The translations under genes were made by a program, and so were the position numbers. Below the pieces are notes generated by a model. That model did no database searches, was not told the DNA's origin, and saw only the letters and a program-made list of their open reading frames with translations. A DNA stretch of 63,129 bases from Candidatus Yanofskybacteria bacterium RIFCSPLOWO2_02_FULL_44_18 (GTDB lineage: Bacteria > Patescibacteriota > Minisyncoccia > 2-02-FULL-40-12 > GWA2-44-9). Of the stretch, positions 5,684 through 63,129 are shown one piece after another. The stretch is taken from contig MGKT01000002.1 in NCBI GenBank assembly GCA_001794755.1, positions 1 through 63,129 of the forward strand. The letters are read 5' to 3'. Numbering within the stretch: the stretch's first letter is position 1; each line of letters begins with the position of its first letter.

Positions 5684-5752
5684 ATTGGTAGGGATTGACT
5701 GATACTAGCATTTTTAGGGATTTTTGGCAAGGTATCGAACTATGGCGTGGAA

Positions 5753-5781
5753 TTGATAACACGGGAAGTTGATGTTATAAT
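5753..5781 (+). promoter_or_regulatory. Sigma70 promoter for the tRNA-Ile/tRNA-Ala pair
   Basis: TTGATA - 17 bp - TATAAT, 26 nt before tRNA-Ile. Confidence 0.8.
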
Positions 5782-5807
5782 TTAAAATATTTTGAACAAT
5801 AAATACC

Positions 5808-5879
5808 GCGCGCGTAGTTCAGTGGTAGAACGCGTTCCTGATAAGAACGAGGCCCTTGGTCCGATTCCAAGCGCGCGCA
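5808..5879 (+). tRNA. tRNA-Ile(GAU)
   Basis: Cloverleaf: GCGCGCG/CGCGCGC acceptor, CGTTC-CT GAT AA-GAACG anticodon arm, CTTGG/CCAAG T-stem. Confidence 0.95.
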
Positions 5880-5886
5880 CATTCGC

Positions 5887-5959
5887 GGGCCGTTAGCTCA
5901 GTTGGTAGAGCGCCTCATTTGCAATGAGGAGGTCACCAGTTCAAGTCTGGTACGGTCCA
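5887..5959 (+). tRNA. tRNA-Ala(UGC)
   Basis: Cloverleaf with G3:U70, CCTCA-TT TGC AA-TGAGG anticodon arm, TTCAAGT T-loop. Confidence 0.97.
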
Positions 5960-5966
5960 CTATCGC

Positions 5967-6539
5967 ATGTTCTCAACTATCCTATACTTCATCACCACCC
6001 ACCAGCTGCTCGGTTATCTGGTAATATTTCTAGGCATGATTTTGGAGGGAGATATTATTCTTTTTACCGCTGCTTTTTTGACTCACTATGGATTTTTCGA
6101 TCCTGTTAAAATAATTTTTGTTGTCGTGGCCGGTGTTATTCTTGGTGACATTATCTGGTATTATCTCGGCATCTTCGCCGTTAAATACCCGAGAATAAAC
6201 AAGTGGCTTGACCGCATAACCCACCGAGTCGACAGTCATCTGGAAAAAAGTCCTTTTAAAACTTTATTTTTTTCTAAGTTCATATACGGCCTCCACCACC
6301 CCATACTAATGAGAATCGGTTCCAAGAAAATGGGATTGAAAAAATATTTAAAGTCGGATATCATCGCCAGCCTTATATGGATTGTAATCATAGCTGTTTT
6401 GGGCTATCTTTTCGGCGCTTCATTTTTTCTGGTCAAGAAATATATCCGCTACGCCGAACTGCTTTTTTTAGCCGGTGTCATCATCTTTTTCTTGTTTGAA
6501 AAAGGTTTAGTGTCCAGAAAACTAGAAGAGAAGATATAA
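5967..6539 (+). CDS. DedA/SNARE-associated family membrane protein
   Basis: LEGDIILF.AAFL, G..LGD..WYYLG, FFSKFIYGL..P pattern. Confidence 0.85.
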   Translation: MFSTILYFITTHQLLGYLVIFLGMILEGDIILFTAAFLTHYGFFDPVKIIFVVVAGVILGDIIWYYLGIFAVKYPRINKWLDRITHRVDSHLEKSPFKTLFFSKFIYGLHHPILMRIGSKKMGLKKYLKSDIIASLIWIVIIAVLGYLFGASFFLVKKYIRYAELLFLAGVIIFFLFEKGLVSRKLEEKI

Positions 6540-6561: not shown

Positions 6562-7590
6562 ATGTCCAGCCAGCTTACAATTTTGCTTTTTTCCGTCGGG
6601 GCGGCCGTTATCGTCCTTTTGGGCATTAATTTGTATGTCTTATTCAAACCCAAGAAACAGGAACCGGATGACACATATTTGGCTTTGCACCAAAGATTGG
6701 ATTCATTTTCCCAGCTCATTTCCGACCAGCTTGAAAAAAACCGCCAGGCTTCCGAGAAGGCGACCGTCACCGTCCATCAGCAAGTCCAGGGATTTACGCA
6801 AGGTATGACTTTGCTGCAGGAAAACATGCGGCAAATGCACGAATCGGTAAAAGGCGTTGTTTCGTTCCAGGACATCTTCAAGTCTCCCAAATTAAGAGGT
6901 ATATGGGGCGAAGCTTCATTGGAGTCAGCCCTTGACGAGTATTTTCCCAAGGATCGTTACGAGCTCCAGCATTATTTCAGGTCTGGGGAAGCGGTTGATG
7001 CCATTTTGAAATTGCCGAATAACTTACTGCTTCCGATTGACTCAAAATTCAACTGGGAGAATTTTGAAAAAATGATCAATGCCGAAAACGATATTAATAG
7101 AGAAATACACCGCAAACAATTCTATAACGACGTAAAAAAGAAAATTGACGAGATAGCGTCCAAATATATATTGCCGGGAGAGGGCACGATTGACCGGGCT
7201 TTGATGTATGTTCCGGCCGAGACTGTATATTATGAAATCATAAACAATATTAAAGACGTGGATATACCCAAATACGCACGATCAAAGAAGGTCTATTTGG
7301 TTTCGCCGAATACGTTCGCTCTTTCCGTTTCCGCTATTTTGCACTGGTTTCGTGACGTTCAGCTTAATAAGCAAACGCAGGATATCATGAAGCGTCTCGA
7401 TCGCATTCTCGTTGATTCCACGAAACTCACGGATGAATTTCAAAAGCTGGGCCGGCACATCTCAAACGTCAAATCTTCTTATGATGAATCGGAAAAAAGA
7501 GTGGCGTTGATGGTAGACAGAGTCAGAAATGTCATTGAAATAGGGGAAAGTGAAGACGGCGCCGCGAAAATAGAAGCGCCGACCGTCTGA
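6562..7590 (+). CDS. rmuC: DNA recombination protein RmuC
   Basis: N-terminal TM and coiled coil; KLRGIWGE, VDAILKLP..LLPIDSKF, I.SKYI.P.EGT.D.A.MYVP.E. Confidence 0.93.
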   Translation: MSSQLTILLFSVGAAVIVLLGINLYVLFKPKKQEPDDTYLALHQRLDSFSQLISDQLEKNRQASEKATVTVHQQVQGFTQGMTLLQENMRQMHESVKGVVSFQDIFKSPKLRGIWGEASLESALDEYFPKDRYELQHYFRSGEAVDAILKLPNNLLLPIDSKFNWENFEKMINAENDINREIHRKQFYNDVKKKIDEIASKYILPGEGTIDRALMYVPAETVYYEIINNIKDVDIPKYARSKKVYLVSPNTFALSVSAILHWFRDVQLNKQTQDIMKRLDRILVDSTKLTDEFQKLGRHISNVKSSYDESEKRVALMVDRVRNVIEIGESEDGAAKIEAPTV

Positions 7591-7709
7591 TTGCCTTTAT
7601 TTTATCAACATTTCTGCTTGCATTTTCTGCTTTCGAAAGTGTTAAAATGCAGTTGTGATTAAGAATAAAAAGTCCTCGATTCATCGAGGCAGGGAATGGA
7701 GGTGTCTAC

Positions 7710-9923: not shown

Positions 9924-11192
9924 ATGTCTAAGAAAGGAAAACCAATCGATCCCCCCAAAGGCATTTCCACGATTTTGCCCGAGGATCAGAAATATTACCG
10001 GTATATCTTAAAGAAAGCCGAAGCCATATTTGATTATTACGGCTTTGAGAGAATCGATGCCGGCATATTGGAATCATCAGACGTATTCACGCGGACAATG
10101 ACCGCGGATTCAGATGAAGAAAAAGAACTCTTTTCTTTCAAAACCAAAAACAGCGAGTATCTGGCCTTAAAATATGACAATCAAGTTTCCGTAGCCCAGG
10201 CGTATATCAACAATGGAATGAACTCCCGGCCTCACCCGGTAAAACTTTTTTACGTTTCCTCTTCCTTCAGGAATATTGAGGGTAGGCGGCAAACATTGGA
10301 AATGGGAGTGGAAACGATAGGGGACGATTCGGAAATAATAGACGCCGAGCTCATATTCATGGCTCACAAACTCATTGAAAGCATGTCAATCGGAGAATAC
10401 AGCGCTTACGTGAACAGTATGGGCGAATCTTCATGCCGCCCGGCGTATATTCGCGCCCTTAAAGACTATTTCAAGAATAAATCGAAAAAACTTTGCTCGG
10501 CCTGCCGGGATAATCTAAAAACCAATCCTTTAAAAATTCTCAATTGCCAAGTGGAAACTTGCAAAGAAGTAAACAAAGAAGTGCCGCAAACGGTGGACTA
10601 TCTTTGCGATGAATGCCACGTCCATTTCAAGCATACTCTTGAATACCTCGACGAAGTCGGCGTGCCGTATATTCTGAATCCGATTTTAATAAGAGGGCGG
10701 GAGTATCATACTAGAACGGCATTTGATTTTATTTCCGATGCCAATCCGGAATTAGCACCCGTGATTCAGGGCGGACGCCATGATCGTTTGATTGACACCT
10801 TGGGCGGATCAAGAACGCCGGCGGCCGGCTGGACCATGAATCTGGACCAGATTGTAACCGCTTTAAAGGAAAAGCAGGCTAGTGTGCCGGACGGAAAAAT
10901 AAAACCTAAAATTTTCTTGATTCAGCTTGGCGAAATGGCCAAAAAGAAAAGCCTGATTCTTTTTGAGAATTTCCGAAAAGCTGGAATTGAAGCCAAATCT
11001 TCCCTAGGCCGAGACAGCATTAAGTCGCAATTGCGGATAGCCCATAGGCTGGGCGTTAAATTCGCTCTGATATTCGGACAGAAAGAGGCTTTAGACAACA
11101 CCATGATTGTCAGGGAAATAAATACGGGAGTCCAGGAAACGATTCCGGTGGAAAAAATAATAGAGGAAATTAAAAAGAAACTGAAAACATGA
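9924..11192 (+). CDS. Histidyl-tRNA synthetase-like protein with degenerate catalytic motifs
   Basis: HisRS architecture (PPKG, YGF, Cys-rich insert, GGR.D.L, C-terminal anticodon-binding domain), but RPEGT is KYDNQ and the motif 3 Arg is Gln. Confidence 0.8.
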   Translation: MSKKGKPIDPPKGISTILPEDQKYYRYILKKAEAIFDYYGFERIDAGILESSDVFTRTMTADSDEEKELFSFKTKNSEYLALKYDNQVSVAQAYINNGMNSRPHPVKLFYVSSSFRNIEGRRQTLEMGVETIGDDSEIIDAELIFMAHKLIESMSIGEYSAYVNSMGESSCRPAYIRALKDYFKNKSKKLCSACRDNLKTNPLKILNCQVETCKEVNKEVPQTVDYLCDECHVHFKHTLEYLDEVGVPYILNPILIRGREYHTRTAFDFISDANPELAPVIQGGRHDRLIDTLGGSRTPAAGWTMNLDQIVTALKEKQASVPDGKIKPKIFLIQLGEMAKKKSLILFENFRKAGIEAKSSLGRDSIKSQLRIAHRLGVKFALIFGQKEALDNTMIVREINTGVQETIPVEKIIEEIKKKLKT

Positions 11193-11545
11193 TTACGGAC
11201 GTTTTCTGCAAAATCATAAAAGGCGAACTGCCGGCGGATAAGGTATATGAGGACAAAGACTACTTTGTCGTTAAGGATATTGCGCCCCAAGCACCGGTCC
11301 ATCTTTTGATTATTCCCAAAAAACATTTTGAAGCTCTGCATGATTTCAAAAATTCCGACGCCGAACTTTTAGGCAAGGCTTTGCTTGTGGCCGAAAAAGT
11401 CGCAAAAAAAATGGGCATCCATGACAAGGGCTATCGCCTCATCATCAACGAAGGCGTCCATGGCGGAAAGCTTGTGCCGCACCTCCATATTCATCTTCTG
11501 GGCGGCAAACGGCTTGGTGCGAAACTAGTAAAACAGGATATTTGA
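11189..11545 (+). CDS. HIT family nucleotide hydrolase (Hint)
   Basis: FCKII, DIAPQAPVHLLIIPKKH, PHLHIHLLGG histidine triad. Confidence 0.95.
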   Translation: MITDVFCKIIKGELPADKVYEDKDYFVVKDIAPQAPVHLLIIPKKHFEALHDFKNSDAELLGKALLVAEKVAKKMGIHDKGYRLIINEGVHGGKLVPHLHIHLLGGKRLGAKLVKQDI

Positions 11546-11592: not shown

Positions 11593-11859
11593 ATGGTTGA
11601 AGTTAAAAGAAAACCAAATGAATCAATCGGCAGTCTAATGCGCCGATTCAATCGCTTTGTCCAGCAAAGCGGAGTTTTGATTAAAGCCAAAAAAACGCAG
11701 TTTAGAATAAAGAAAGAAACCGATAGAAAAGAAAAGCTATCGGCCATTATGGGCATGCATTTAAGCCAGCTGAGGAGAAAACTCGAGAAAATGGGTAAAT
11801 ACGACGATGAAACGTTCGAACTGGAAAAGCGCAAATTAAAACAGGAACTGGATATATAA
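11593..11859 (+). CDS. rpsU: 30S ribosomal protein bS21 (C-terminally extended)
   Basis: SD AGGAGG; VEVKRK.NES..SLMRRF.R; next to yqeY as is typical. Confidence 0.75.
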   Translation: MVEVKRKPNESIGSLMRRFNRFVQQSGVLIKAKKTQFRIKKETDRKEKLSAIMGMHLSQLRRKLEKMGKYDDETFELEKRKLKQELDI

Positions 11860-12787: not shown

Positions 12788-14001
12788 TATCCGGAATTGA
12801 CATCGGAAACTCGCAAGTTAAGGCCGTAATCGCCAAAATCGAACGGAATTCTTCGCGGCCGGAAATAATCGGATTCGGGAACTCGCCGTCACTTGGTTTA
12901 AGGCGGGGCATGGTCGTGGATATGGAAGAAACGATTGACAACGTTCGAACCGCTGTCCATCGCGCCCAAACCATGGCCGGGGCGAGTATTCAAAGAGCCT
13001 ATGTCTCCGTGAACGGGCTGCATATCGGCAATCAAACGTCGCGCGGAGTGATTGCCGTATCCCGAGCCGATAATGAAATATCTCAGAACGATATTGATCG
13101 CGTCGTCCAGGCTGCATCCGTCGTCAGTCTTCCGGCAAATAGGGAAATAATTCACGTCATTCCCCGAAATTATATTGTTGACGGCACCGAGAATGTTAAA
13201 AATCCGTTAGGGATGAAGGGCGTCCGTTTAGAAGCCGAAGTATTCATAATCGACGGCCTATCTCCCCATATTCGCAATATCGCCAAATGCGTAAATGAAA
13301 ACAATATCGAAGTGGCCGGTCTGGTTTTCGCTCCGGTTGCTGCGGCGATGGCGGTTTTGGATAAAAATCAGAAGGAATACGGCGTTTTGCACTTGGATTT
13401 CGGCGGCGGAACCTCGACGCTCACGGTCTTTGAAGAGGCCGACTTATTGCACACCTCGGTGCTTCCCATCGGCTCAAAGCATATAACAAATGACTTGGCC
13501 ATCGCGCTAAGGACGTCTTTGGACGTCGCCGAAAAAATCAAGCTTGATTACGGCGCGACTTCAGAAACCGAAGATTTGCGGCGCAAAGACATGATTGATC
13601 TTTCCGCACTTTTAGCCGAAGAAAATTTCGTAGTTTCTAAAAAACAATTAATCAAAGTCGTGGATGCGCGCGCCCATGAGTTGATGGATATGGTCAACGC
13701 TGAAATGAAAAAGATTTCCCGGAACGGGATGCTTCCGGCCGGCATTGTTTTAAGCGGCGGCGGATCAAATTTACCCGGGTTCGCCATGCTTGTGAAAGAG
13801 GCGCTTAAGTTGCCGGTCCGGTTGGCGACGACTCTCAATATGACCGGAGCCGAAAATGTCAGCGATCCGTCGTATGCCGTCGGCCTGGGTCTCGTAGCAT
13901 GGGGTTTCGAAAAAGAATTCAGCAAGGGTCAAAAAGGCCCCAGCGGAAACAATAGATTCATTAGTAATGTAGTTAGGTGGTTCAAAAATTTTATGCCCTG
14001 A
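12769..14001 (+). CDS. ftsA: Cell division protein FtsA
   Basis: GIDIG..QV, GLRRG.VVD, NPLGM.GVRLE, DFGGGT, P.G..HITNDLA. Confidence 0.96.
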   Translation: MGKPYLISGIDIGNSQVKAVIAKIERNSSRPEIIGFGNSPSLGLRRGMVVDMEETIDNVRTAVHRAQTMAGASIQRAYVSVNGLHIGNQTSRGVIAVSRADNEISQNDIDRVVQAASVVSLPANREIIHVIPRNYIVDGTENVKNPLGMKGVRLEAEVFIIDGLSPHIRNIAKCVNENNIEVAGLVFAPVAAAMAVLDKNQKEYGVLHLDFGGGTSTLTVFEEADLLHTSVLPIGSKHITNDLAIALRTSLDVAEKIKLDYGATSETEDLRRKDMIDLSALLAEENFVVSKKQLIKVVDARAHELMDMVNAEMKKISRNGMLPAGIVLSGGGSNLPGFAMLVKEALKLPVRLATTLNMTGAENVSDPSYAVGLGLVAWGFEKEFSKGQKGPSGNNRFISNVVRWFKNFMP

Positions 14002-14018
14002 GTCCGTTTTCAACAGAA

Positions 14019-14027
14019 TTATCCACA
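14019..14027 (+). promoter_or_regulatory. Consensus DnaA box in the ftsA-ftsZ intergenic region
   Basis: Perfect TTATCCACA; function unproven. Confidence 0.5.
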
Positions 14028-14150
14028 GAAAATGAGTTGCCGGTTGCAACTCATTTTTATTTGTGATAATACGAGATAACGAAAACAGCGCTGACAAAGA
14101 AATTGCCTTTCGGAGATACGATAAAATTTCACCCAGTCATCAATATTAAT

Positions 14151-15317
14151 ATGCCTCAGATTAAACCTCAATTTGAAACATTTGCCCGAATAAAAGTCGT
14201 TGGCGTCGGCGGTTCGGGCAATAACGCGCTTAGCCGGATGATTGAAGCCAGAATCCACGGCGTCGAATTTATTGCCGTGAATACGGACGCCCAGGCACTG
14301 CATACATCCAACGCGCCGATAAAAATACATATTGGAAAGAGCCTCACTAAAGGGTTGGGAGCGGGCATGAATCCGGAAATCGGCCGCCAAGCCGCCGAGG
14401 ACACGAAAGAAGAAATAATGAACGCTCTTAAAGGGGCGGATATGGTTTTCATAACATGCGGCATGGGGGGCGGCACCGGAACGGGAGGCGCACCCGTGGT
14501 GGCGGACATTGCTCGCGAAGTCGGAGCTCTGACTGTGGCCGTTGTCACAAAGCCGTTCAGTTTCGAAGGGGCGCAGAGAATGAGAATTGCCGAGGAAGGC
14601 TGGAATACTTTGCGCGATAAAGTCGATGCCTTAATCACAATTCCCAACGACAGGCTGCTTTCAATAATCGACCGCAAGACTCCGCTTTTGGAATCCTTCG
14701 CCATCGTTGATGATGTGTTGAGACAGGGCGTCCAGGGCATTTCCGATTTAATCACTATTCCCGGTATCATTAATGTTGATTTTGCGGATGTTAAAGCAGT
14801 CATGGTTAACTCCGGTTCGGCGTTGATGGGTATTGGCCGGGCTAGCGGAGAAGACAGGGCAATTGAGGCGGCCAAGATGGCAATTAATTCTCCCTTGCTG
14901 GAAGTTTCGATTGACGGAGCCCGAGGAGTGCTTTTCAACGTGTCGGGCGGCACGGACATGGCTATGGCTGAAATCAACGAAGCGGCCCGGATTATTACCG
15001 AACACATTGATCCCGATGCCAAAGTAATATTCGGCGCCGTTATCGACGACAAGTTAAAGAAAGGGGAGATAAAAATAACCGTTGTCGCCACCGGTTTTTC
15101 CAATTTGGGTGTTTCACCGAGACCGGCCGGGTACGATGCCGGGCCAAGCCTGTTTGAAACAATCAAGAAACAGCAGAATCAGATATATGCCGATGGCCCC
15201 CGAAATTCACAGCCTCAAGTTCAAGATCCCGCTCCGGTGAAAGAATTCGTTGACGCGTCTGTTGAAGAAGAACAATTTGACATTCCCGCGTTTATTAGAA
15301 GAAAGATGAAGAACTAG
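14151..15317 (+). CDS. ftsZ: Cell division protein FtsZ
   Basis: [21 protein letters not shown] signature, INVDFADV, C-terminal DIPAFIR. Confidence 0.98.
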
Positions 15318-15331
15318 TATAAAAAACCCCA

Positions 15332-16180
15332 TCAGATTGACGGGGAGACAGCTTCGGAATTATCGGCGGAAGCCGGTTTTTGTTTTGGAGTAAGAAGATG
15401 CCAGGCGTTCAAGTATTGATAGACGTTCACTTTTATTTTCGGTTTTGAATGATAATCAGAATAACCATCAAGTGGGACATTGAATGAAAAGTGTTCCCTC
15501 GTATCAAGAATATGACGAATGGGAAATATATATAATGAATATACGCTTTCTGATATGGTAATGCATAGCCAATAATCATCAACAATTCTTTTGGTATACT
15601 CACAGAACTTGTAATATCCTGAAGATGGATTCGCGGTTTTTATTGCACAGACCCACTCATTAATTTGAATTGTAATTTTTCCGTGTGAGCTTTTCAGATG
15701 GCCGATCTTAAAGCCTGTTTTTTTGATTTCATCGATTAGCCACTTAATTACAGATCTTGATTTAATGTCATTTACTTTATCTTCTTCTTTTTTTCTTTTT
15801 AAAAAAGCTCGGGTCTTAATCGTGCAGACTTTCGTTCGTTGATGGCCGCGTACACGGAAGGGCAATATCAATGAGAATTCCTGCCTAATTTGGCGAACTC
15901 TCTCCTTAGAGATATTAAGTTGGTTGGCAATTTGTGCAAAAGACATACAATCATTTCTGAACCAAGCCATGAGGGTGTCGGCGTTAACGGGACTACCGTT
16001 TGCGTCTACGTAATTGCGTTTTCCGATTATTTTTCTCGCCATATCAATCGATTTGAAATATATCCTTTGCTTAATATAAAAGCATATTGAACAGACAAAC
16101 TTTCCATCAACGAATCTATTTCTAATATTTCTCCACTTTTTGCGTCCGCACTTTGAACAAATTAAGGCGTTTTCAGCCAT
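15332..16180 (-). CDS. AT-rich hypothetical protein with N-terminal Zn finger and sigma70 region 4-like HTH
   Basis: CSKC...CSIC; FAQIANQLNISKERVRQI; opposite strand and lower GC than neighbours. Confidence 0.7.
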   Translation of the reverse strand: MAENALICSKCGRKKWRNIRNRFVDGKFVCSICFYIKQRIYFKSIDMARKIIGKRNYVDANGSPVNADTLMAWFRNDCMSFAQIANQLNISKERVRQIRQEFSLILPFRVRGHQRTKVCTIKTRAFLKRKKEEDKVNDIKSRSVIKWLIDEIKKTGFKIGHLKSSHGKITIQINEWVCAIKTANPSSGYYKFCEYTKRIVDDYWLCITISESVYSLYIFPIRHILDTREHFSFNVPLDGYSDYHSKPKIKVNVYQYLNAWHLLTPKQKPASADNSEAVSPSI

Positions 16181-16231
16181 ATTTACTGTCCTTTCAATGA
16201 GCTTGCGCGATTATATCACCAAGACCCGGAA

Positions 16232-16240
16232 TTATCCACA
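16232..16240 (+). promoter_or_regulatory. Consensus DnaA box upstream of nrdJ
   Basis: Perfect TTATCCACA about 100 nt before the nrdJ start. Confidence 0.5.
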
Positions 16241-16342
16241 TTTGGCAATTCCGACACAGCTGTTAAACTAGGATTACCTTAAAAGCCCCCTAACCAAAAA
16301 CTGGCTTCGAGATGCTTGCCAGTTTAAATTTTTGATTTTGCC

Positions 16343-19117
16343 ATGGAACATCAACCAAATCTTTTAAATCCGGTCGGAGAGCCAAAACATTTTGGCAATG
16401 GCCACGCTAAAGATCTTGCCGATCCGGGAAACAGGAAAAGAGGAATCGTTTGGCCAAGATTATTCGGTTTTGGCAATCCTTATGATGATATCGTTTGGGA
16501 AAAAAGGACCGCGAAGATAACGAAGGGAGACGGAACCGTAGTTTTTGAACAAAATGAAGTGGAAGTTCCTAATTTTTGGAGTCAAACGGCAACGGATATT
16601 GTAGCGTCAAAATATTTCAGGGGCAGATCGGATTCTCCTGATCGTGAGTTTAGCGCCAAGCAGATGGTGGACCGAGTGGCCAAAACGGTCGGTTACTGGG
16701 GCATGAAAGACGGGTACTTTGCCACGGCCGCAGATTGTGAAAATTTCATTGATGATTTGCGCTATTTATTAGTCAATCAGTATTTTGCCTTCAACTCGCC
16801 GGTTTGGTTTAACGTTGGCGTGCAGGAAAAACCCCAATGTTCAGCATGTTTTATCTTAGCCGTGGAAGATACGATGGATTCTATTCTTGAGTGGTATCAC
16901 GACGAAGGTAAAATTTTCCAACGCGGTTCGGGGTCGGGTTTGAATGTTTCCAAATTGCGCTCCTCTAAAGAACCATTATCAAAAGGAGGATTTTCTTCCG
17001 GGCCGGTTTCTTTCATGAAAGGAGCTGATGGTGTGGCCAACTCAATCAAATCGGGCGGGGCCACAAGAAGGGCGGCCAAAATGGTAGTAATGAATACTGA
17101 TCACCCGGATTTGAAAGATTTTATATATTGTAAAAAAGTTGTTGAGGATATGACAAAAGCTTTGGCTGTCGCCGGCATAAAAGATTCGATTGCCGCCGAG
17201 CTTTTTGATCCCTACACGCTACTCCCTTACCAGAATGCCAACAACTCGGTCAGAGTTACCGATGAATTCATGCGTTCTCTTGAAGCAGACGGATACTGGG
17301 ATCTTAAGGCAGTCACAACCGGAAATACTTTGGAAACAGTTAAGGCCCGGGAAATTATGGATTGGATAACCGATGCTGCTTGGCATAGCGCGGATCCGGG
17401 TATTCAGTATGACACCACAATCAACGAATGGCATACTTGCCCCAATACCGGCCGTATCAACGCTTCTAATCCTTGTAGTGAATACATGCATCTTGACAAT
17501 TCGGCTTGCAATTTAGCATCTCTTAATCTTTTGAAATTTTTGAAAGAGGGTGGAAAATTAAATGTTGAGTTGTTCAAAAAAGCGGTGGATACTGTTATTT
17601 TGGCACAGGATATTTTGGTTGATAATTCTTCTTATCCAACCCCGAAAATTACGCAAAATGCCAAGGATTATCGGGAGCTTGGCTTGGGCTATGCGAATTT
17701 AGGAGCGTTGTTAATGGTTTTGGGCTGGCCGTACGATTCCGATGGCGGCCGGGCTTTGGCCGGGCATATTACTTCTTTAATGTGCGGCGAGGCCTATCGA
17801 ATGTCGGCCCTGCTGGCTGATGTTAAGGGTTCTTATGCGGGATTTGAAAAAAATAAAGCGCCCCAATTAAACGTCATTTCAAAGCATCTGGCGGCGGCTG
17901 AAAAACTTTATGAGGAATCGCAATCGGCCGGTCTTAATGATGTTGAACTGCAAACTGCGTCGCGGCTGGTATGGCACGAAGCTTTGGATATGGCCAGGCA
18001 CACCGGTATTCGCAATTCACAGATGACCGTGCTCGCGCCAACCGGCACCATCGCTTTTTTAATGGACTGCCAGACGACAGGCATTGAACCGGATTTAGCC
18101 CTTGTAAAATACAAAAAACTGGTTGGTGGAGGTACTTTGAAATTAATTAATAATCAGGTGCCTTTGGCTCTATCACGCTTGGGTTATGCGAATCAAGAGA
18201 TAGAAGAAATTTCTAATTTCATTTTGGAAAAAGACACTATTGAGGAAGCGCCTCATCTTAAGCCTGACCATCTGCCTGTTTTTGATTGTTCTTTCCGTCC
18301 CATTAACGGCCAACGCAGTATCAGTTGGCAAGGTCATGTCAAAATGATGGCCGCGGCCCAGCCTTTCATCTCCGGCGCAATATCAAAAACGGTTAATCTG
18401 CCGGCCGATGCCACCAGAGAAGACATTAAGAATGTATTTATTGAAGGCTGGCGCTTAGGATTAAAAGCCATTGCCGTCTATCGCGACGGATGTAAATCAA
18501 TTCAGCCGTTGAATTTATCGAACAACGATAAGTTCGTGGAACGTTCGAATGGATACACAAGAATTAAACTGCCGGACGAGCGGCCGGCTGTCACTCACAA
18601 ATTCAAAGTGGCCGGCCATAAGGGTTATTTGACTGTCGGATTATACCCGGAAACAAACCAGCCCGGCGAGACGTTTCTAACCATCGCCAAGGAGGGAAGC
18701 ACCATATCGGGATTGCTTGACGTAATTGCGACCATGACATCAATTTGCCTCCAATCCGGCGTCCCCCTTAAAACTCTGGTTAATAAATTTAAAGACATGA
18801 GATTTGATCCGGCCGGGTTCACGACAAATCCCGAAATACCTATGGCCAAATCAGTCGTTGACTACATGTTTAGATATATGGGCATGAAATATCTTAATGC
18901 GTCCGACAGAGAAGAGTTGTTTGGAATGCCGAACACGGATAACAGTATGGAAAATCGGGCAGATTTTATTCAGGCCCCGGCCGTTCAGGCATCTCATGCT
19001 CATATAACTACGAATATGGACGCGCCGGCTTGCGGAAACTGCGGGACATTGATGGTCAAGGCCGGATCATGTTACTCTTGCCCAAATTGCTTCACGACGA
19101 CGGGAGTTTGTAATTAA
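16343..19117 (+). CDS. nrdJ: Class II (adenosylcobalamin-dependent) ribonucleotide reductase
   Basis: FNSPVWFN, QCSACFI, GATRRAAKM, NPCSEY, APTGTI, GAISKTVN, C-terminal TSCPD-like domain and Zn ribbon. Confidence 0.96.
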   Translation: MEHQPNLLNPVGEPKHFGNGHAKDLADPGNRKRGIVWPRLFGFGNPYDDIVWEKRTAKITKGDGTVVFEQNEVEVPNFWSQTATDIVASKYFRGRSDSPDREFSAKQMVDRVAKTVGYWGMKDGYFATAADCENFIDDLRYLLVNQYFAFNSPVWFNVGVQEKPQCSACFILAVEDTMDSILEWYHDEGKIFQRGSGSGLNVSKLRSSKEPLSKGGFSSGPVSFMKGADGVANSIKSGGATRRAAKMVVMNTDHPDLKDFIYCKKVVEDMTKALAVAGIKDSIAAELFDPYTLLPYQNANNSVRVTDEFMRSLEADGYWDLKAVTTGNTLETVKAREIMDWITDAAWHSADPGIQYDTTINEWHTCPNTGRINASNPCSEYMHLDNSACNLASLNLLKFLKEGGKLNVELFKKAVDTVILAQDILVDNSSYPTPKITQNAKDYRELGLGYANLGALLMVLGWPYDSDGGRALAGHITSLMCGEAYRMSALLADVKGSYAGFEKNKAPQLNVISKHLAAAEKLYEESQSAGLNDVELQTASRLVWHEALDMARHTGIRNSQMTVLAPTGTIAFLMDCQTTGIEPDLALVKYKKLVGGGTLKLINNQVPLALSRLGYANQEIEEISNFILEKDTIEEAPHLKPDHLPVFDCSFRPINGQRSISWQGHVKMMAAAQPFISGAISKTVNLPADATREDIKNVFIEGWRLGLKAIAVYRDGCKSIQPLNLSNNDKFVERSNGYTRIKLPDERPAVTHKFKVAGHKGYLTVGLYPETNQPGETFLTIAKEGSTISGLLDVIATMTSICLQSGVPLKTLVNKFKDMRFDPAGFTTNPEIPMAKSVVDYMFRYMGMKYLNASDREELFGMPNTDNSMENRADFIQAPAVQASHAHITTNMDAPACGNCGTLMVKAGSCYSCPNCFTTTGVCN

Positions 19118-45937: not shown

Positions 45938-47424
45938 ACCCTTACTAAATACATGAATACTTCAAGACAACTTCGACTCAAACGCGGCTAGGAACCATGG
46001 GGATTAGTATGCTCTGAAAAAGCCGCGCCAAACGCGGTTTTTCATTGTCTAGGGAATCTGTGATTGGCTTTCGGCGATAGGTTTGAAGACTCTTCGCGGA
46101 AAGCTAATGGATAGAATCTTGAAAATTAATGATAGCGGGTTAGTAAATCTTATAAAGTTGAACTTTATAAGGAATCATATAAGTATCATTCGTCTTTATG
46201 TTACTCATTAAAGAATTAAGGGCGTATGGAGGATGCCTTGACACGAAAGAGCGAAGAAGGTCGTGGCGTGACTGCGATAAGCTTCGGGGAGCCGTCTAGC
46301 GGGCTTTGATCCGGAGATGACCGAATGGGGGAACCCCATCGAGCAAACCTCGATGACCCGGCGCAAGCTGGGAGCGTACCTGGCGAAGTGAAACATCTCA
46401 GTAGCCAGAGGAAAAGAAATCAACAAGATTCCCTTAGTAGCGGCGAGCGAAAAGGGATAAGCCTAAACTTTTTTAACGCAAGTTAAAAAGGGGTAATAAG
46501 GATAGAACACTTGAATTTTTATCGTTGCGCTTTCGAAGGCAGCGGTAAAAATTTGAAAGAAGTTACAAATTCCAAAGTTAGCAGAACGGCCTTGGAACAG
46601 CCGGCCAAAGAAGGTGATAGCCCTGTAAGCGAAAACTTCTGGAACTTCTGTTTTATTGCGGCGCAAGCCGCCTTGCTTGAGTAGCCCGGGATAAGAATGT
46701 CCTGGGTGAATTTGCCCATACTACTGGGTAAGGCTAAATATCTTTCGTGATCGATAGTGAACCAGTACCGTGAGGGAAAGGTGAAAAGCACCCCGGTGAG
46801 GGGAGTGAAATAGCAACTGAAACCATATGCCTACAAAGAGCGGAAGTCCTTCGGCGGCAGCAATGCCGTCTGGGATGACCGTGTGCCTATTGAAGAATGA
46901 CCCAACGAGTTTATCCAAATTGCTCTATAAGTGCCTCTGGCACGTATGGAAAGGGAAACCGAGTGTTAAAAGCGCGTATTAGAACTAAATAAAATTTTCT
47001 TTAAAAAGAAAGTTTTAATAGTTCTAGAAGCAGTTTGGGTAAGACCCGAAGCCAGGCGAGCTAACCATGCCCAGGATGAAGGTTGTCGAAAGACAACTGG
47101 AGGTCCGAACTGGTTGGTAGCGCAATACCATCGGATGAGGTGTGGTTCGTAGTGAAAAGCTTATCGAGCCTGGTAATAGCTGGTTCTCCCCGAAATGCCT
47201 TTAGGGGCAGCGGCGGATTGTAGTTGAGGGGGTAGAGCACTGATTGGTTTGCCGTGCCCGCAAGGGTAGGCTTACCAAATAAACTCCGAATACCTCAGCG
47301 TAATTTCCGCCAGTGAGTAAGCGAGGGCAAAGCTTCGTTTACGCGAGGGAAACAGCCCAGATCATCAATTAAGGTCCCAAAATCTATGCTAAGTGAAAAG
47401 GAAGTATTCTGCCTTAGACAGGTA

Positions 47425-47474
<50 letters not shown>

Positions 47475-47553
47475 TACTCGATTTCGCCGCAAGGCGACGA
47501 GGCAGGATGCGCCGAAAATTTATAGGGGCTAAGCATAGTACCGAAATTATGGG

Positions 47554-47710
47554 TTTGATGATTTCGAAAAGGATTTGTGGTGCCGTAGCTCAGTCAGAGC
47601 ACTGGGTCCCGGGCCCAGAGGTCGACGGTTCAAATCCGTCCGGCGCCACCAACCTGTCGGATTAAAATCAGGCGAGACCTGATAATCCGATCTTTTTCGA
47701 AATCATCAAG
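47554..47710 (+). other. Intervening sequence in 23S helix 45
   Basis: Replaces h45 between CCGAA..GGG and GGTAGGGGAGC; about 20-bp closing stem TTTGATGATTTCGAAAAGGA / TCTTTTTCGAAATCATCAAG. Confidence 0.85.
47579..47651 (+). ncRNA. tRNA-like cloverleaf with CCA end (nominal anticodon CCG) embedded in the 23S IVS
   Basis: GGTGCCG/CGGCGCC acceptor + ACCA; GCTC/GAGC D-stem; CTGGG/CCCAG anticodon stem; GACGG-TTCAAAT-CCGTC T-arm; lacks G18G19 and U33. Confidence 0.85.
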
Positions 47711-49011
47711 CGGTAGGGGAGCATTCTGATTGCTGTGAAGGTGAACTGTGAAGTTTGCTGGAGCGTTCAGAAGGGAGAATGTTGGGATGAGTAACCGCAA
47801 GTGGCGTGAAAACCGCCACCGCCGAAAGCCTAAGGTTTCCTCCGCGATGTCAATCATCGGAGGGTTAGGCGTCCCTAAGCGTAACCTAGCTTGCGGGCTA
47901 GGGATCGCGATGGTGAGCCGGTTAATATTCCGGCCCCGCTTACATATTCGAAGGAGTGACGGGCTAAATTAGATCGAGCGCATTATTGGATTTGACGTCT
48001 TTGCTCATAGAGTGGGAACCAGGCAAATCCGGTTCCAGCCGAAAGGCGCACTCGAGAGTGAAAGAAATGGCCGTTAGGCCAGATTCGATTGACGAGGGCT
48101 CCAAGAAAAGCTTCTAAGATTAATATGTAAGCGCACGTACCGAAAACCGAAACAGGTGGGCTGGTGTAAGTGCACCAAGGCGAACGGGTGATTATTGGCT
48201 AAGGAACTCGGCAAAAAAGCGGCCGTAAGTTCGCGATAAGGCCTTCCCCAGCTAACGCAAGTTAGATGGGGACGCAGCTAAAGACCCTCTGGCGACTGTT
48301 TATCAAAAACACAACTCCGTGCTAAGCCGTAAGGCGCTGTATACGGGGTGACGCTTGTCCGGTGCCGGAACGTTAACGGTGAAGGTGGCGGGTAGCAATA
48401 CCCTCTGCCAACGCCCGAAGCGCCGGTGAACGACGGCAGTAACTATAACTGTCTAAAAGTAGCAAAATACCTTGTGGGGTAAGTTCCCACGCGCATGAAT
48501 AGCGGAACGACTGGAGGACTGTCTCAGCCAATAGCCCGGTGAAAATGCAATGTCGGTAAAGATGCCGACTACCCGCACCTAGACGGAAAGACCCCGGAAG
48601 CTTTACTGTAGCTTGGTATTGGTCTATGGGTTTTAATGCGTAGCGTAGTGGGTACACTTTGAAGCGTCTCTCTCGGGAGACGTGGAGTGGCCAATGAAAC
48701 ACCCATCTTTAAAATCTATAGCTCTAACCGGTGACACCCTAAAAGCGTGAAATGAAAATTTCAAATTTTTAGGGTTTCATCGAGACAGTGCCTGGCGGGC
48801 AGTTTTTGTGGGGCACAATCCTCCTAAAAGGTAATGGAGGAGTTCATCAAGGTTGGCTAGCTCCGGATGGAAATCGGAGCGATAGTGTAAAGGCACAAGC
48901 CAGCTTAACTGCAAGGCGGATATGCCGCGCAGATGCGAAAGCAGGACCTAGTGAACCGACCGTGGCTCGTAGGAGCGCGGAAGATCATCAGATAAAAGCT
49001 ACTCCGGGGAT

Positions 49012-49919
49012 AAACTCTGCGTAACACATACATAATTTTGTGTTACAATAAGAGTATGTTGTCCCGTTTGTCCGTAAGGACAAACATGATTACGGCTTAT
49101 AACGAAGAACCTATAGAACGGTCTTTCCTGTGCGAAAGCACATTTCTCTTCTATAGCAACCTCGTGGGAAGTCGTGAGCGTCTTGAATCTAAACAAAACA
49201 CAATTAGCTGTAATTTACGGCTCAATTATGGGCGATGCTTATTTGCAGTCCAACGGCACGAATGCCAGATTGCGATTTGAACATTCTCTTAATCAAGAGC
49301 AGTACGTTGTTTGGAAATTTAATTTCCTAAAGAATATATTTTCAGATTCGGCTATTGTAAAAATTAACAGGATTCATCCTAAAACCAAGCAAGAATATAA
49401 ATACGTTCGATGCCAATCTAAAACATTGCCGGAATTGAAGAAAATTAAAGTTATTTTCTATCCAGCGGGCAAAAAGATTGTGCCGTTAAGTATTAAAAAG
49501 TATTTGATAGAACCTATTTCTCTTGCGGTGTGGTTTATGGATGACGGATATTATTATCTTAGAGATAAATGCGGATATTTATATCTTGGAAATATAACGA
49601 AAGAAGAAGCTGAAGTTTGCAGCGATACCTTGCAGAATAATTTTAATCTAAAAACTAAGGTTCTAGCAAAGAAAAAAGGGTATGCGTTATATTTTTCAAG
49701 ATTAGAGATGTTAAAACTCAAAAAAGTAGTTTCTGAATTCATGATCCCAATGTTTAGATACAAGTTACCTCATTGACCCCGTAACGACTTGTTCTGGGTA
49801 CAGTTTTTAAAAACTGGCCAGACTTATAGCCCCCATTCATTAATGGCTATAATACGCCGTCTCCAGTCTTTTTACAGAAAAAGCTGGATGAAGATATAGT
49901 CTAATACATTAATGTATTG
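49012..49919 (+). mobile_element. Group I intron 1 at about U2449 (E. coli numbering) with homing endonuclease gene
   Basis: Splits GGGAT/AACAGGCT; IGS GTTGTCCC (49058-49065) gives a U.G pair; R (CCGTAACGACT) and S (GAAGATATAGTCT) elements; terminal G. Confidence 0.92.
49174..49776 (+). CDS. LAGLIDADG homing endonuclease (intron 1)
   Basis: IYGSIMGDAYL and LAVWFMDDG motifs. Confidence 0.93.
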   Translation: MSVLNLNKTQLAVIYGSIMGDAYLQSNGTNARLRFEHSLNQEQYVVWKFNFLKNIFSDSAIVKINRIHPKTKQEYKYVRCQSKTLPELKKIKVIFYPAGKKIVPLSIKKYLIEPISLAVWFMDDGYYYLRDKCGYLYLGNITKEEAEVCSDTLQNNFNLKTKVLAKKKGYALYFSRLEMLKLKKVVSEFMIPMFRYKLPH

Positions 49920-52075: not shown

Positions 52076-52216
52076 GTAGGGTAGCTATACTGAGAGTGCT
52101 CCACCTGATCCCATTCCGAACTCAGAAGTGAAATCTCTCGAGGCCCATGATACCCAGCACCATTTTCACAATCAGATTGCGGAAATGGTGCTGGGGAAAG
52201 TAGGTAGCTGCCTTAC
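52076..52216 (+). rRNA. rrf: 5S rRNA with extended helix IV
   Basis: CCACCTGATCCCATTCCGAACTCAGAAGTGAAA core; terminal helix GTAGGGTAGCT/AGCTGCCTTAC; 141 nt. Confidence 0.92.
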
Positions 52217-61533: not shown

Positions 61534-61562
61534 TAAAAACCGCTTTTAGAAGGCGGTTTTTA
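61534..61562 (+). terminator. Intrinsic terminator after rpoC
   Basis: AAAAACCGC / GCGGTTTTT hairpin. Confidence 0.8.
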
Positions 61563-61577
61563 GCGTCTCAAAATGTC

Positions 61578-61606
61578 TTGACGAAAGGCTCTTTTTGTGA
61601 TACCAT
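61578..61606 (+). promoter_or_regulatory. Promoter of the RT gene
   Basis: TTGACG - 17 bp - TACCAT with TG extension; SD AAGGAGG follows. Confidence 0.7.
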
Positions 61607-61644
61607 TTGTGGGTTCTTAACAAACAGGCTCAAAGGAGGGCCAT

Positions 61645-62958
61645 ATGGCCAAAAAGGCCAAGAAACCGCGGGGCACAGCCCCGGAAGAACAGAAGAAGCG
61701 TCGCCGCCGTCGCAAGGAGTGGACGTTTACGAATTTCCAGAACGTTCTGGCGCTGCCCGAACGGCTGGCGACGTATCTACGTCTTCTTCTGCACCTGGAC
61801 AAAACGTCCTGGGACTTCTGTCTCGACAAACTCCGCCAGCACGTGAAGTGGGAAGCGGAGGTTGAGGACAAGCGTCCCAAGGTGCAAATCAACGTCAAGG
61901 GTCGCGAGCGCACCTCGCGCAGCGGTCCGGCGTATCTTGCATGGTCCAAGTCAAAGGGCCGCGGCAAGGGCCGTCGGTACTTTGCGGCGCCGTGCGATGA
62001 GCTGGGTCGGGTTCAGAAATCGATTCTGCACCGATTCATCTCGCAGGTGTTCGTTCACTTCGCCCGCTACGGCGGACAAGTCGGCTCGAGCATCATGGCG
62101 AATGCCGGGCATCACGCCGGATTCGCAAAGTCAGTGTTCTCACTGGACATCGTCAACGCGTATCCGACGGTGTATCGAAGCCGGGTTCGCGCGACGCTGC
62201 GAAAGCCGTTCGAGTTCGCACTGCGGCAGTTCAAGGGCGTGACATTCTCAGAGGAAGATGTGTTGAAGATGCTTGACAGCATCACCGACCTCATCGTTTT
62301 CAAGGATCGTCTACCCCAAGGACCGCCGACATCGCCTCGGGTCTTCGATATCGTCTGCGGTAAGATGGACCAGGAGATCTTCCAATGGCTGGAATCGAAC
62401 GCGACGCCCTTTCAGGGGTATCGCTACAGCGCCTGGACTGACAACCTGACCATTTCGTCCGACGGCGAGATTCCGCTGGAGGTCCGACAGAAGGTCATCG
62501 AAATCGTCCGCGAGAATGGGTTCTTCCCGCACATGCGCGAGGACAAGATGAAGTATTTCTCGCCGGAGACAGGCGAACGGCCAATCGTAACCGGGCTCGT
62601 GGTTCTGCCTGATGGCCGGATTACGATGGCGCCGCGCAAGGTCAACCAGCTCCGGGCTCGGCTTCACCAGCTCATGCTCCGCAAGGCATGGGATAAAGAG
62701 GCGATGATGCTCATCGACGGTACGATCGGATTCGTTCGGGAGATTTATCCGAAAAATCTGCCGTCGAAGCTTCGTGATGTTGTCTTGGCTGTTGAAGCCC
62801 GACGGGCTTCGATGCGAGTGCCCGTCGTTCATGACGAGTCGATCGAAGATGAAGATGCGATCATGCTCGACGAGGATCCGGAAACCAAGGTCCCGAGTCC
62901 GTCCAAGAAGAAGGACGAGGGACCCACGGAAACCGTCTCGGAAGTTGTTCTGATGTAA
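61645..62958 (+). CDS. Retron-family reverse transcriptase with atypical WTDN active-site motif
   Basis: R.FAAP..EL..VQ..I, SI.ANAGHH (NAxxH), SLDIVNAYPTV, LPQGPPTSP, YSAWTDNLTIS, IVTGLVV (VTG). Confidence 0.9.
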   Translation: MAKKAKKPRGTAPEEQKKRRRRRKEWTFTNFQNVLALPERLATYLRLLLHLDKTSWDFCLDKLRQHVKWEAEVEDKRPKVQINVKGRERTSRSGPAYLAWSKSKGRGKGRRYFAAPCDELGRVQKSILHRFISQVFVHFARYGGQVGSSIMANAGHHAGFAKSVFSLDIVNAYPTVYRSRVRATLRKPFEFALRQFKGVTFSEEDVLKMLDSITDLIVFKDRLPQGPPTSPRVFDIVCGKMDQEIFQWLESNATPFQGYRYSAWTDNLTISSDGEIPLEVRQKVIEIVRENGFFPHMREDKMKYFSPETGERPIVTGLVVLPDGRITMAPRKVNQLRARLHQLMLRKAWDKEAMMLIDGTIGFVREIYPKNLPSKLRDVVLAVEARRASMRVPVVHDESIEDEDAIMLDEDPETKVPSPSKKKDEGPTETVSEVVLM

Positions 62959-62966
62959 GTTGTTCA

Positions 62967-63129
62967 CCCTCCTTTGAGTAATGAATCAGTTTTCTTGACT
63001 GCCAACACGCGTTGGAAGTAGCGCTTCTGCGTTACGCACCAGCGGGTCGCTTGTAGCCAATCCTGCAACGGGATTGGTGAGACCGCAGTCCGTAGAGAGT
63101 GCGATTCACCTGACAGCGTAGCTGTCAGC
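62967..63129 (+). ncRNA. Candidate structured ncRNA downstream of the RT (truncated by window end; strand uncertain)
   Basis: Nested stems TGAATC/GATTCA and GACTG/CAGTC enclosing several hairpins, plus CTGACAGC/GCTGTCAG; anti-SD 12-mer at its 5' end. Confidence 0.5.

Follow-up and report, generated by a model that had tools for sequence, protein, structure and literature searches.

The stretch of DNA analysed here (the window: 63,129 nucleotides (nt), positions 1 to 63,129 of the forward strand of contig MGKT01000002.1 of Candidatus Yanofskybacteria bacterium RIFCSPLOWO2_02_FULL_44_18) ends shortly after an open reading frame (ORF) for a retron-family reverse transcriptase (RT) of 437 amino acids (aa), located at 61645..62958 on the + strand and identified from the ORF list and its motifs. 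This gene is the first of an operon in a Parcubacteria (Candidatus Yanofskybacteria) genome in which the RT is followed by an array of structured RNAs and by two genes, one for an AAA+ ATPase and one for a protein that joins an HExxH motif to a von Willebrand factor A (vWA) domain. The RNAs form a family with a covarying structure, the proteins fall into recognisable families, and the active site of the RT is polymorphic for Asp and Asn. The system is probably a new retron-like variant that, by analogy with retrons, would make complementary DNA and serve in defence. We put the probability of this reading as a whole, mechanism included, at roughly 0.55. An initial annotation of the window had described the RT as a stand-alone protein without an effector, which proves to be an artefact of the window edge, 171 nt past the RT stop codon.

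The remainder of the operon becomes visible once the contig is extended, as the initial annotation had proposed as a way to look for an effector. On a longer contig (L001), which carries the same sequence as the window (window coordinate = L001 coordinate + 51644), the RT lies at 10001-11314 and is followed by 2.3 kb that contain no credible ORF, a 380-aa AAA_5 ATPase (13630-14772), a gap of 663 nt and a 560-aa vWA protein (15436-17118). At a homologous locus where the RT is about 60% identical, the RT is followed by a 1.4-kb non-coding gap, an AAA_5 gene and a gene for a protein of roughly 560 aa, with transposase genes on the flanks. A scan of one genome per species in 185,579 species yielded 18 loci of the family and 20 ordinary retron loci, the latter used as controls. 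Searches with the ATPase and the 560-aa protein (tblastn) find the order RT, AAA, vWA in fifteen out of fifteen loci with enough downstream DNA, and neither protein in any of the twenty control loci. MoxR-like AAA+ and HExxH-vWA genes are thus present in every sufficiently long related locus, and partner genes are tightly linked to the RT, as they are in retrons. The order is also found in a clade whose RT is 33% identical (P0199), which has the RT, a gap of 850 nt, an AAA_5 gene and a 701-aa protein that is homologous to the 560-aa protein (hhalign E-value of 2e-81).

The placement of the RT among retron RTs is supported by its motifs, by profile searches and by its predicted fold. The retron motifs read by the initial annotation are all in place, with NAGHH (the NAxxH motif) at aa 153-157 (nt 62101-62115), D168 as the Asp of motif A (nt 62146-62148) within SLDIVN, LPQGPPTSP at aa 223-231 and IVTGL, which contains VTG, at aa 314-318. 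The motif C region YSAWTDNLTISS (aa 261-272) contains W264-T-D266-N267, encoded by TGG ACT GAC AAC at 62434..62445 (+). In a phmmer search of PDB sequences, all eight matches to the RT are retron RTs, and the alignment pairs 'ysaWTDNltis' with 'YTRYADDLTLS' of the retron Ec86 RT, so that WTDN occupies the position of the retron YADD, as the annotation had assumed. The 25 best-scoring PADLOC models for the RT are all retron RT models, and the best NCBIfam match, below its cut-off, is the retron St85 RT. In an alignment of 51 family sequences, H157 of NAGHH is nearly invariant (>=90%) and G317 of VTG is invariant.

An AlphaFold (AF2) model built from 51 homologues, with a mean predicted local distance difference test score (pLDDT) of 89, leads to the same placement. 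In a Foldseek search of the PDB, the best 18 matches are all retron RTs (Ec86, Ec78, Ec83, Eco2, Eco7 and Eco8). The RTs of group II introns, G2L4, DRT9, DRT2 and Abi-P2 rank after these, with DRT9, DRT2 and Abi-P2 at rank 26 or lower and the RT of a diversity-generating retroelement (DGR) at rank 40. Membership in the DRT/UG/Abi group of RTs was rejected on the basis of these low fold ranks and because PADLOC's best 25 models include no DRT model. An origin as a group II intron or related mobile retroelement was rejected because group II RTs rank below all retron RTs and because no Rfam family, intron RNAs included, matches the island at L001 9800-15600 at E<=1.

The top PADLOC model is that of retron type XIII (RT_XIII; E-value of 7.6e-33, 112 bits, spanning aa 11-388), which raises the question of whether the RT is an ordinary type XIII member with a divergent active site. 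We calibrated the scores with ordinary retron loci from the same genome scan. A genuine type XIII RT (L028) reaches 631 bits on RT_XIII and a type I-C RT reaches 617 bits on its own model, whereas the RT and three of its homologues reach 112-131 bits, about one fifth of the score of the true member, and the models of types II-A, X, III-A and VI are only about 10 bits behind. Type XIII is further defined by a partner with winged-helix and C-terminal SWIM zinc-finger domains, belongs to clade 10 and has no AAA+/vWA partner listed (Mestre et al., 2020; PMC7736814). Here the partners are an AAA_5 ATPase and a vWA protein, and Pfam finds no SWIM or winged-helix domain in the neighbouring genes. Type XIII membership was rejected on these grounds, and we regard it as very improbable. 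Because the PADLOC scores lie far below those of genuine members, the sequence comparisons place the RT in the retron family and outside the 13 modelled retron types. The distinct retron-like lineage proposed by the initial annotation is therefore upheld.

This lineage is small and is found mostly in bacteria of the candidate phyla radiation (CPR). A HMMER search of 1.84 billion representative sequences returns 37 clusters at E<=1e-30 within 4483 retron-like matches at E<=1e-3, and by sequence the 37 clusters form a small, distinct RT clade. A word-indexed search returns 93 close homologues, and nearly all of those with a name are from CPR bacteria (Parcubacteria, Andersenbacteria, Uhrbacteria and Falkowbacteria). 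One locus of the family (L024, JBDGRK010000035.1) comes from a metagenome-assembled genome that bears the label of a DPANN archaeon, Candidatus Nanohaloarchaea. At this locus the match to the vWA gene is split into two pieces (5724-6518 and 6723-7622), and the gene is possibly disrupted. Several other loci are labelled 'Gammaproteobacteria', which is implausible, and mislabelling, misbinning or horizontal transfer are all possible.

The 2.3-kb gap between the RT and ATPase genes of L001 can be read as seven tandem units of 215-340 nt, each starting with ...TTTG-CTTGAC and finishing with TC(T/A)ATC-CAAA.... The flanks are complementary within each unit and differ in sequence between units. Unit 1 starts 25 nt past the RT stop codon and is cut by the window end (62983..63129, +). 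Its flanking repeat a1, GAATCAGTTTT, occupies 62983-62993 (+) and is followed by the conserved CTTGAC at 62994-62999 (+), by a structured 5' domain that extends to about 63105 (+) and by the start of a long 3' hairpin. The rest of the unit is visible in L001, where it finishes at 11612 with TCTATC and then a2, AAAACTGATTC. In ViennaRNA folds, every unit is closed by an a1/a2 helix and contains a 5' domain with branches and a long 3' hairpin, the latter often bearing small hairpins that resemble GGGC-UUCG-GCCC. The fold of the whole of unit 1 has a z-score of -8.7 relative to dinucleotide shuffles.

The structure of the units is further supported by covariation. For an alignment of the 5' domain of 32 units from 14 loci, RNAalifold predicts 20 base pairs, 14 of them with compensatory changes. 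Within this alignment 95.6% of cells are paired, compared with 27-44% when the partners are slid, and double substitutions occur in 112 cells compared with 10-24. The covariance model R1, built from the same alignment and run over 605 kb, finds 81 matches, all on the strand of the RT and all in loci of the family. The 20 control loci have no R1 match, nor is there one past the vWA gene or upstream of the RT, the last in agreement with the initial view that no non-coding RNA (ncRNA) precedes this RT. In the window, R1 matches unit 1 at 62982-63105 (78 bits, E-value of 1.2e-14), which bears out the earlier proposal of a downstream RNA with which the RT would work. The a1/a2 helix is paired at 94.6% across 35 units, with compensatory changes at nine out of ten positions. 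As the a2 sites in this test were chosen by complementarity, it was repeated with the word TCNATC as the sole anchor; the 10-mer that follows then pairs at 8/10 positions or more with the 10 nt before CTTGAC at 17 out of 26 sites, against a null rate of 1.9%.

The units are found in the RT-AAA gap, in the AAA-vWA gap or in both, and a locus has between 1 and about 10 of them. In L001, seven precede the ATPase gene, and one firm unit (15097-15355) and one weaker unit (14773-15033) follow it. A 113-aa ORF that some assemblies list between the AAA and vWA genes (L001 14772-15113) was rejected as a gene because it overlies these RNA units and has no family matches. The CTTGAC that adjoins a1 contains a conserved G, and a conserved TC(N)ATC adjoins a2. 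Hairpins resembling intrinsic terminators follow units 1, 2 and 5, so the array is probably made as several transcripts, beginning with an RT mRNA that would include unit 1. The units thus have the anatomy of a retron ncRNA, with flanking a1/a2 repeats, a structured part equivalent to msr and a long variable hairpin equivalent to msd, and depart from it in lying downstream of the RT and in being present as multiple tandem copies. BLAST searches with the units against about 80 kb of the contig returned only chance 12-14-mers, and a template/variable repeat pair of the DGR kind was rejected on this basis.

Some units show signs of recent change. Some arrays contain units that are identical or nearly so: in L019 (11278-12130) there are three copies with a period of 366 bp, in L024 (3288-5566) units have near-identical 5' domains, and in L023 (10888-12312) the same a1/a2 pair is repeated; the similarity of these sequences indicates recent tandem duplication. 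About 12 of 47 units have a 3' hairpin in which a hexamer (for example CAACTG, TATCAC, CACGTG, TATTAT or TGCTAC) is repeated three to five times, mostly at a spacing of 10-11 nt (among others, in L001 12455-12586, L013 10775-10895, L022 6307-6405, L026 9591-9712 and L012 1824-1949). These repeats exceed mononucleotide shuffles (p<0.05 for each; about 2.4 units expected by chance) and could be binding sites on one helical face, or could reflect stems that grow by duplication. In the clade with the 33% identical RT, two units can be seen in the gap of L061 (1180-2027), each with a consensus TTGACA-17-TATNNT promoter, a1/a2 repeats (CCCTATTCG/CGGAATAGGG and AATATTCTATTCG/CGGAATAGAATATT) and a terminator. 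The vWA homologue of this locus has about 190 extra N-terminal residues. We also note that several independent assemblies break inside the array, in unit 1 for the window, in unit 2 for L005 and in unit 3 for L008 and L009. Repetition of the units is the probable cause of this fragmentation, which would keep the array and its partner genes out of sight of annotation.

The units might not be templates of the RT at all. They could instead regulate, guide or scaffold the AAA+/vWA machine, or act as leaders in cis, with the RT using a different substrate or doing no more than bind the units. Their location directly ahead of the AAA and vWA genes, the presence of terminators of their own after some units, and a position and copy number unlike those of retron RNAs are all consistent with such roles. 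We consider this unlikely, since the units share the inverted repeats, the conserved 5' domain and the hypervariable long 3' hairpin of retron ncRNAs, occur solely with this RT family, and accompany an RT that is itself a retron RT. Self-complementary hairpins without a match elsewhere on the contig argue against guides.

The canonical YxDD of retrons is replaced by WTDN in this RT and by [YW]-x-D-[DN] across the 87 homologues with a readable motif C. The fourth residue of the motif is D in 52 and N in 35 of these homologues, and the first is Y in 46 and W in 41. The initial annotation had asked whether W-x-D-N is conserved among homologues; it recurs but is not uniform. In the alignment of 51 sequences, D168 of motif A never varies and D266, the first Asp of motif C, is kept in >=90%. 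On a neighbour-joining tree of 85 sequences, the minimum number of changes by Fitch parsimony is 12 for D/N and 14 for Y/W. This RT falls in a clade of about 27 sequences that is uniformly N at motif C and otherwise well conserved. D-N and D-D loci carry the same complete gene set. Seven homologues (P0021, P0042, P0058, P0062, P0074, P0090 and P0091) have a C-terminal RNase H domain (PF00075/PF13456), which is fused to both D-D and D-N RTs, the latter including P0021 (YADN), P0042 (YSDN) and P0090 (WVDN). The RNase H-fusion loci L015, L020 and L023 retain the RNA units and the AAA/vWA genes.

These patterns bear on the proposal of the initial annotation that the RT is catalytically altered or has been repurposed as an RNA-binding protein. 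In its full form, this proposal sees a stand-alone retron-like protein with a polymerase site disabled by the change from D to N, its one remaining role being to bind a downstream RNA. It would account for the Asn in place of the third catalytic Asp, the strongly basic N-terminus, the structured RNA a short distance past the stop codon and the score of Pfam RVT_1, which is under the gathering threshold. The AAA+ and vWA genes are always linked, so the protein is not stand-alone. At least a dozen D/N interchanges with the polymerase motifs kept are unlike a one-way loss of catalysis, and an RNase H domain on D-N enzymes makes little sense without RNA-DNA hybrids. From these sequence patterns we lean against alteration or repurposing, and judge the full proposal distinctly unlikely. 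Because D and N alternate, the other two catalytic Asp are kept and RNase H domains occur on both D-D and D-N enzymes, the data fit a reading in which a working active site tolerates Asn in place of the second Asp of motif C. The G-D-N motifs of negative-strand RNA virus polymerases are a precedent for Asn at the same palm position. Neither decay of a single allele nor an error in the sequence explains the motif, given that homologues share the N, and that the same 437-aa protein is found on at least 22 contigs (five places shown; ENA and NCBI samples), so that the WTDN codons are not an assembly error.

Of the two partner proteins, the ATPase matches AAA_5 (4.4e-13) and AAA_3 of Pfam above their cut-offs, RuvB_N more weakly and near the cut-off, and CbbQ_C below it (E-value of 0.0014). 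Its sequence matches in the PDB are the AAA ring of midasin, McrB and NorQ. The 560-aa protein has weak Pfam matches to CobT_C and VWA alone and no sequence match in the PDB. In 48 of its homologues, the HExxH residues H90-E91-x-x-H94 and the metal-ion-dependent adhesion site (MIDAS) residues D403, S405 and S407 are invariant. HExxH lies in a helical N-terminal half that is specific to the family and the vWA domain is C-terminal; in an AlphaFold model (pLDDT 82.7) the C-terminal half matches NorD of NorQD and the MIDAS domain of midasin. None of the 86 clusters of the vWA protein family has a name beyond 'hypothetical', and they share contigs with the RT family. The two genes thus form a MoxR AAA+/vWA pair, an AAA_5-type ATPase adjoining a vWA protein with a MIDAS motif. 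The pair shares with NorQ-NorD, CbbQ-CbbO and midasin an AAA_5 domain with a CbbQ_C-like C-terminus in the ATPase and a vWA domain with invariant MIDAS residues. The systems differ in that NorQ-NorD and CbbQ-CbbO are linked to a metalloenzyme client and this pair to an RT and an RNA array, and in that the vWA protein here has a family-specific N-terminal half with the invariant HExxH.

The setting of the operon suggests an accessory role. The island from the RT to about L001 17800 (7.7 kb) has a GC content of 0.55-0.60, compared with 0.43-0.49 for the genome, and the genomic context varies between the loci of the family, which are sporadically distributed. We infer an accessory, horizontally moving module, and we favour a role in defence because of the foreign GC content of the island, the sporadic distribution with transposases nearby and the established role of retrons. 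The locus could instead encode a housekeeping or symbiosis-related ribonucleoprotein (RNP) of CPR bacteria, with the AAA+/vWA pair as its assembly chaperone in the manner of NorQD. NorQ/NorD and midasin are indeed remodelling or maturation machines, the family is almost wholly confined to genomes labelled as CPR, and defence models give no matches. Sporadic occurrence, foreign composition, adjacent transposases and differing context are signatures of accessory mobile elements, and characterised retrons are defence systems (PMC7736814), so a housekeeping role also seems unlikely.

The mechanism that we favour for this retron-like operon follows retrons in its first steps. The RT would bind each unit at the duplex of its flanking inverted repeats, as retron RTs do, and would copy the 3' hairpin into single-stranded DNA. 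Copying would begin at the conserved TC(N)ATC beside a2 and might be primed from the conserved G of CUUGAC beside a1, with Asn at the second motif C Asp being a tolerated variant of an active, not a dead, site. One RT would thereby yield a panel of different RNA-DNA hairpins. The resulting complexes of RT and nucleic acid may hold or license the AAA+/vWA-metallopeptidase pair, which would act as the effector once an invader disturbs them, in a defence of the abortive-infection type. A more specific version of this reading, which we offer tentatively as a possible but doubtful one, sees a natural multiplexed retron in which one RT serves up to about ten units, the DNA hairpins, many of them with a short word recurring at intervals of 10-11 nt (such as CACGTG, TATCAC or CAACTG), are baits for sequence-specific DNA-binding, -modifying or -cutting proteins of invaders, and the NorQD-like AAA+/vWA-metallopeptidase reads their state.

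Several points weigh against the favoured mechanism. We infer reverse transcription of the units from analogy alone, and no characterised retron has its RNAs downstream of the RT and in many copies. The G proposed for priming falls within a predicted helix, P1, and would not be single-stranded. The covariance model R1 finds no significant unit in the divergent loci L025 and L061, even with filters off, and the units of L061 were recognised by eye alone. Several well-studied RTs need the second Asp of motif C, as in mutagenesis of HIV-1 RT, and the D-N RTs could be slow, prefer a different metal or be inactive. No PADLOC defence model matches the ATPase or the 560-aa protein. MoxR-vWA pairs are classically maturation chaperones, and the pair might help to assemble the RNP and not be a toxin. 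A scan of IMG/VR viral contigs returned only generic retron RTs at 20-31% identity and no member of the family, and nothing ties the locus to phages; in PHROGs, the RT matches a generic polymerase family and the ATPase a CobS-like 'porphyrin biosynthesis' family.

Compared with retrons such as Retron-Eco1 (Ec86), the system shares the sequence and fold of the RT, including NAxxH and VTG, and the layout of the ncRNA. It differs in that the retron ncRNA lies upstream of the RT, whereas here 1 to about 10 differing units lie in tandem downstream of it, in two intergenic regions. Further differences are the variable motif C, a conserved N-terminal extension of about 95 aa in the RT, and the AAA+/HExxH-vWA partner pair, which is absent from the 13 retron types; the winged-helix/SWIM partner of type XIII in turn has no counterpart here (PMC7736814). 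Retrons produce multicopy single-stranded DNA, a branched RNA-DNA molecule primed from a 2'-OH of a conserved G; the only pointers to such a product here are the conserved G in CTTGAC and the conserved TC(N)ATC. What is retron-like is thus the RT and the anatomy of the RNA, and what is new is the position of the RNA, its multiplicity, the active-site polymorphism and the partner proteins. Several tandem msr-msd units per RT have been engineered in 'multitron' arrays (PMC10370050). Those arrays are synthetic and repeat one msr, whereas the arrays described here are natural, vary in their a1/a2 repeats and hairpins, and are conserved in the lineage.

Previous literature contains related observations. 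MoxR-vWA systems have been tied to the RTs of DGRs and not to retrons, in a study that excluded CPR genomes (Kaur et al., 2020; PMC7159879). DGRs are reported to make up some 80% of the RTs of CPR bacteria (PMC8632793), and CPR bacteria go unmentioned in a retron diversity survey of 2026. We found no publication that links a retron with a vWA protein and no published account of this system, and the RT-AAA/vWA operon is apparently undescribed; a prior description is not fully excluded, given a preprint of September 2026 in which RT-associated 'ncRNA arrays' are mentioned and which names neither Patescibacteria nor vWA (bioRxiv 10.64898/2026.09.22.753630).

The RT comprises a conserved helical N-terminal extension (about aa 30-75), a core that holds NAGHH, D168, LPQGPPTSP, WTDN and VTG, and a variable, disordered tail (aa 395-437). 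The basic run KKRRRRRKE at aa 17-25, noted in the initial annotation, has a counterpart in a basic patch of the homologues. The acidic stretch near the C-terminus, noted along with it, is real in this protein and does not hold for the family, where the tails are variable, of low complexity and often basic. The GC content along the RT gene (0.55-0.60) also exceeds that of the neighbouring rpoB and rpoC genes (0.44-0.50), as had been noticed for rpoC.

Upstream, the rpoC ORF ends at 61524 and is followed by a hairpin and T-run, aaaaaCCGCttttagaaGGCGGttttt, at 61535..61561 (+), read from the sequence, which likely serves as terminator of rpoC and bounds the element on its upstream side; our terminator scan omitted it because its loop is larger than the limit of the scan. 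The promoter and Shine-Dalgarno sequence that the initial annotation gave the RT gene do exist as matches to patterns, and only as such. The first is a sigma-70-like match (TTGACG, 17 nt, TACCAT, with TG ahead) at 61578..61606 (+; L001 9934-9962), in a region where promoter-like sites are no more numerous than expected from shuffles, and the second is AAGGAGG at 61633..61639 (+), 5 nt ahead of the RT ATG. The word GGTTC(T/C)T(T/A) is found at L001 9968 (window 61612), 11685, 12913 and 13593, about 5-30 nt ahead of the starts of the RT gene, units 2 and 6 and the ATPase gene. It was rejected as a real signal, as it occurs 9 times on the contig against 7.3 expected and is not above chance. At the other end of the operon, a 94-aa ORF past the vWA gene (L001 17257-17541) still falls within the high-GC island and may be part of the element, while ORFs of 177 and 105 aa further on (to L001 18637) are in DNA of normal GC content; none of the three has a Pfam, PADLOC or PHROG match.

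Elsewhere in the window, a match to 23S rRNA (46207-49190) contains a match to the tRNA model (47579-47648), and the 5S rRNA (52077-52216) lies 2.9 kb past the end of the 23S match. This arrangement points to insertions within the rRNA genes or behind them, as are often reported for CPR bacteria.

To our knowledge, every characterised retron consists of one RT, one upstream ncRNA and one effector from a known set. The lineage described here breaks all three of these pairing rules, yet keeps the RT and the RNA anatomy of retrons. The recurrent exchange of D and N amounts to a natural experiment on the role of the second motif C carboxylate in RTs. If the units are reverse-transcribed, the arrays would be a natural counterpart of the 'multitron' arrays made for multiplex genome editing, and a source of RT/ncRNA pairs that have evolved to serve many templates. 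The operon would add a MoxR-vWA-metallopeptidase module to the partners of retrons and would bring retron-type systems into CPR bacteria. If the hairpins are baits, retrons would gain both a new kind of sensor logic and a new class of effector, in the ultra-small bacteria of the CPR.

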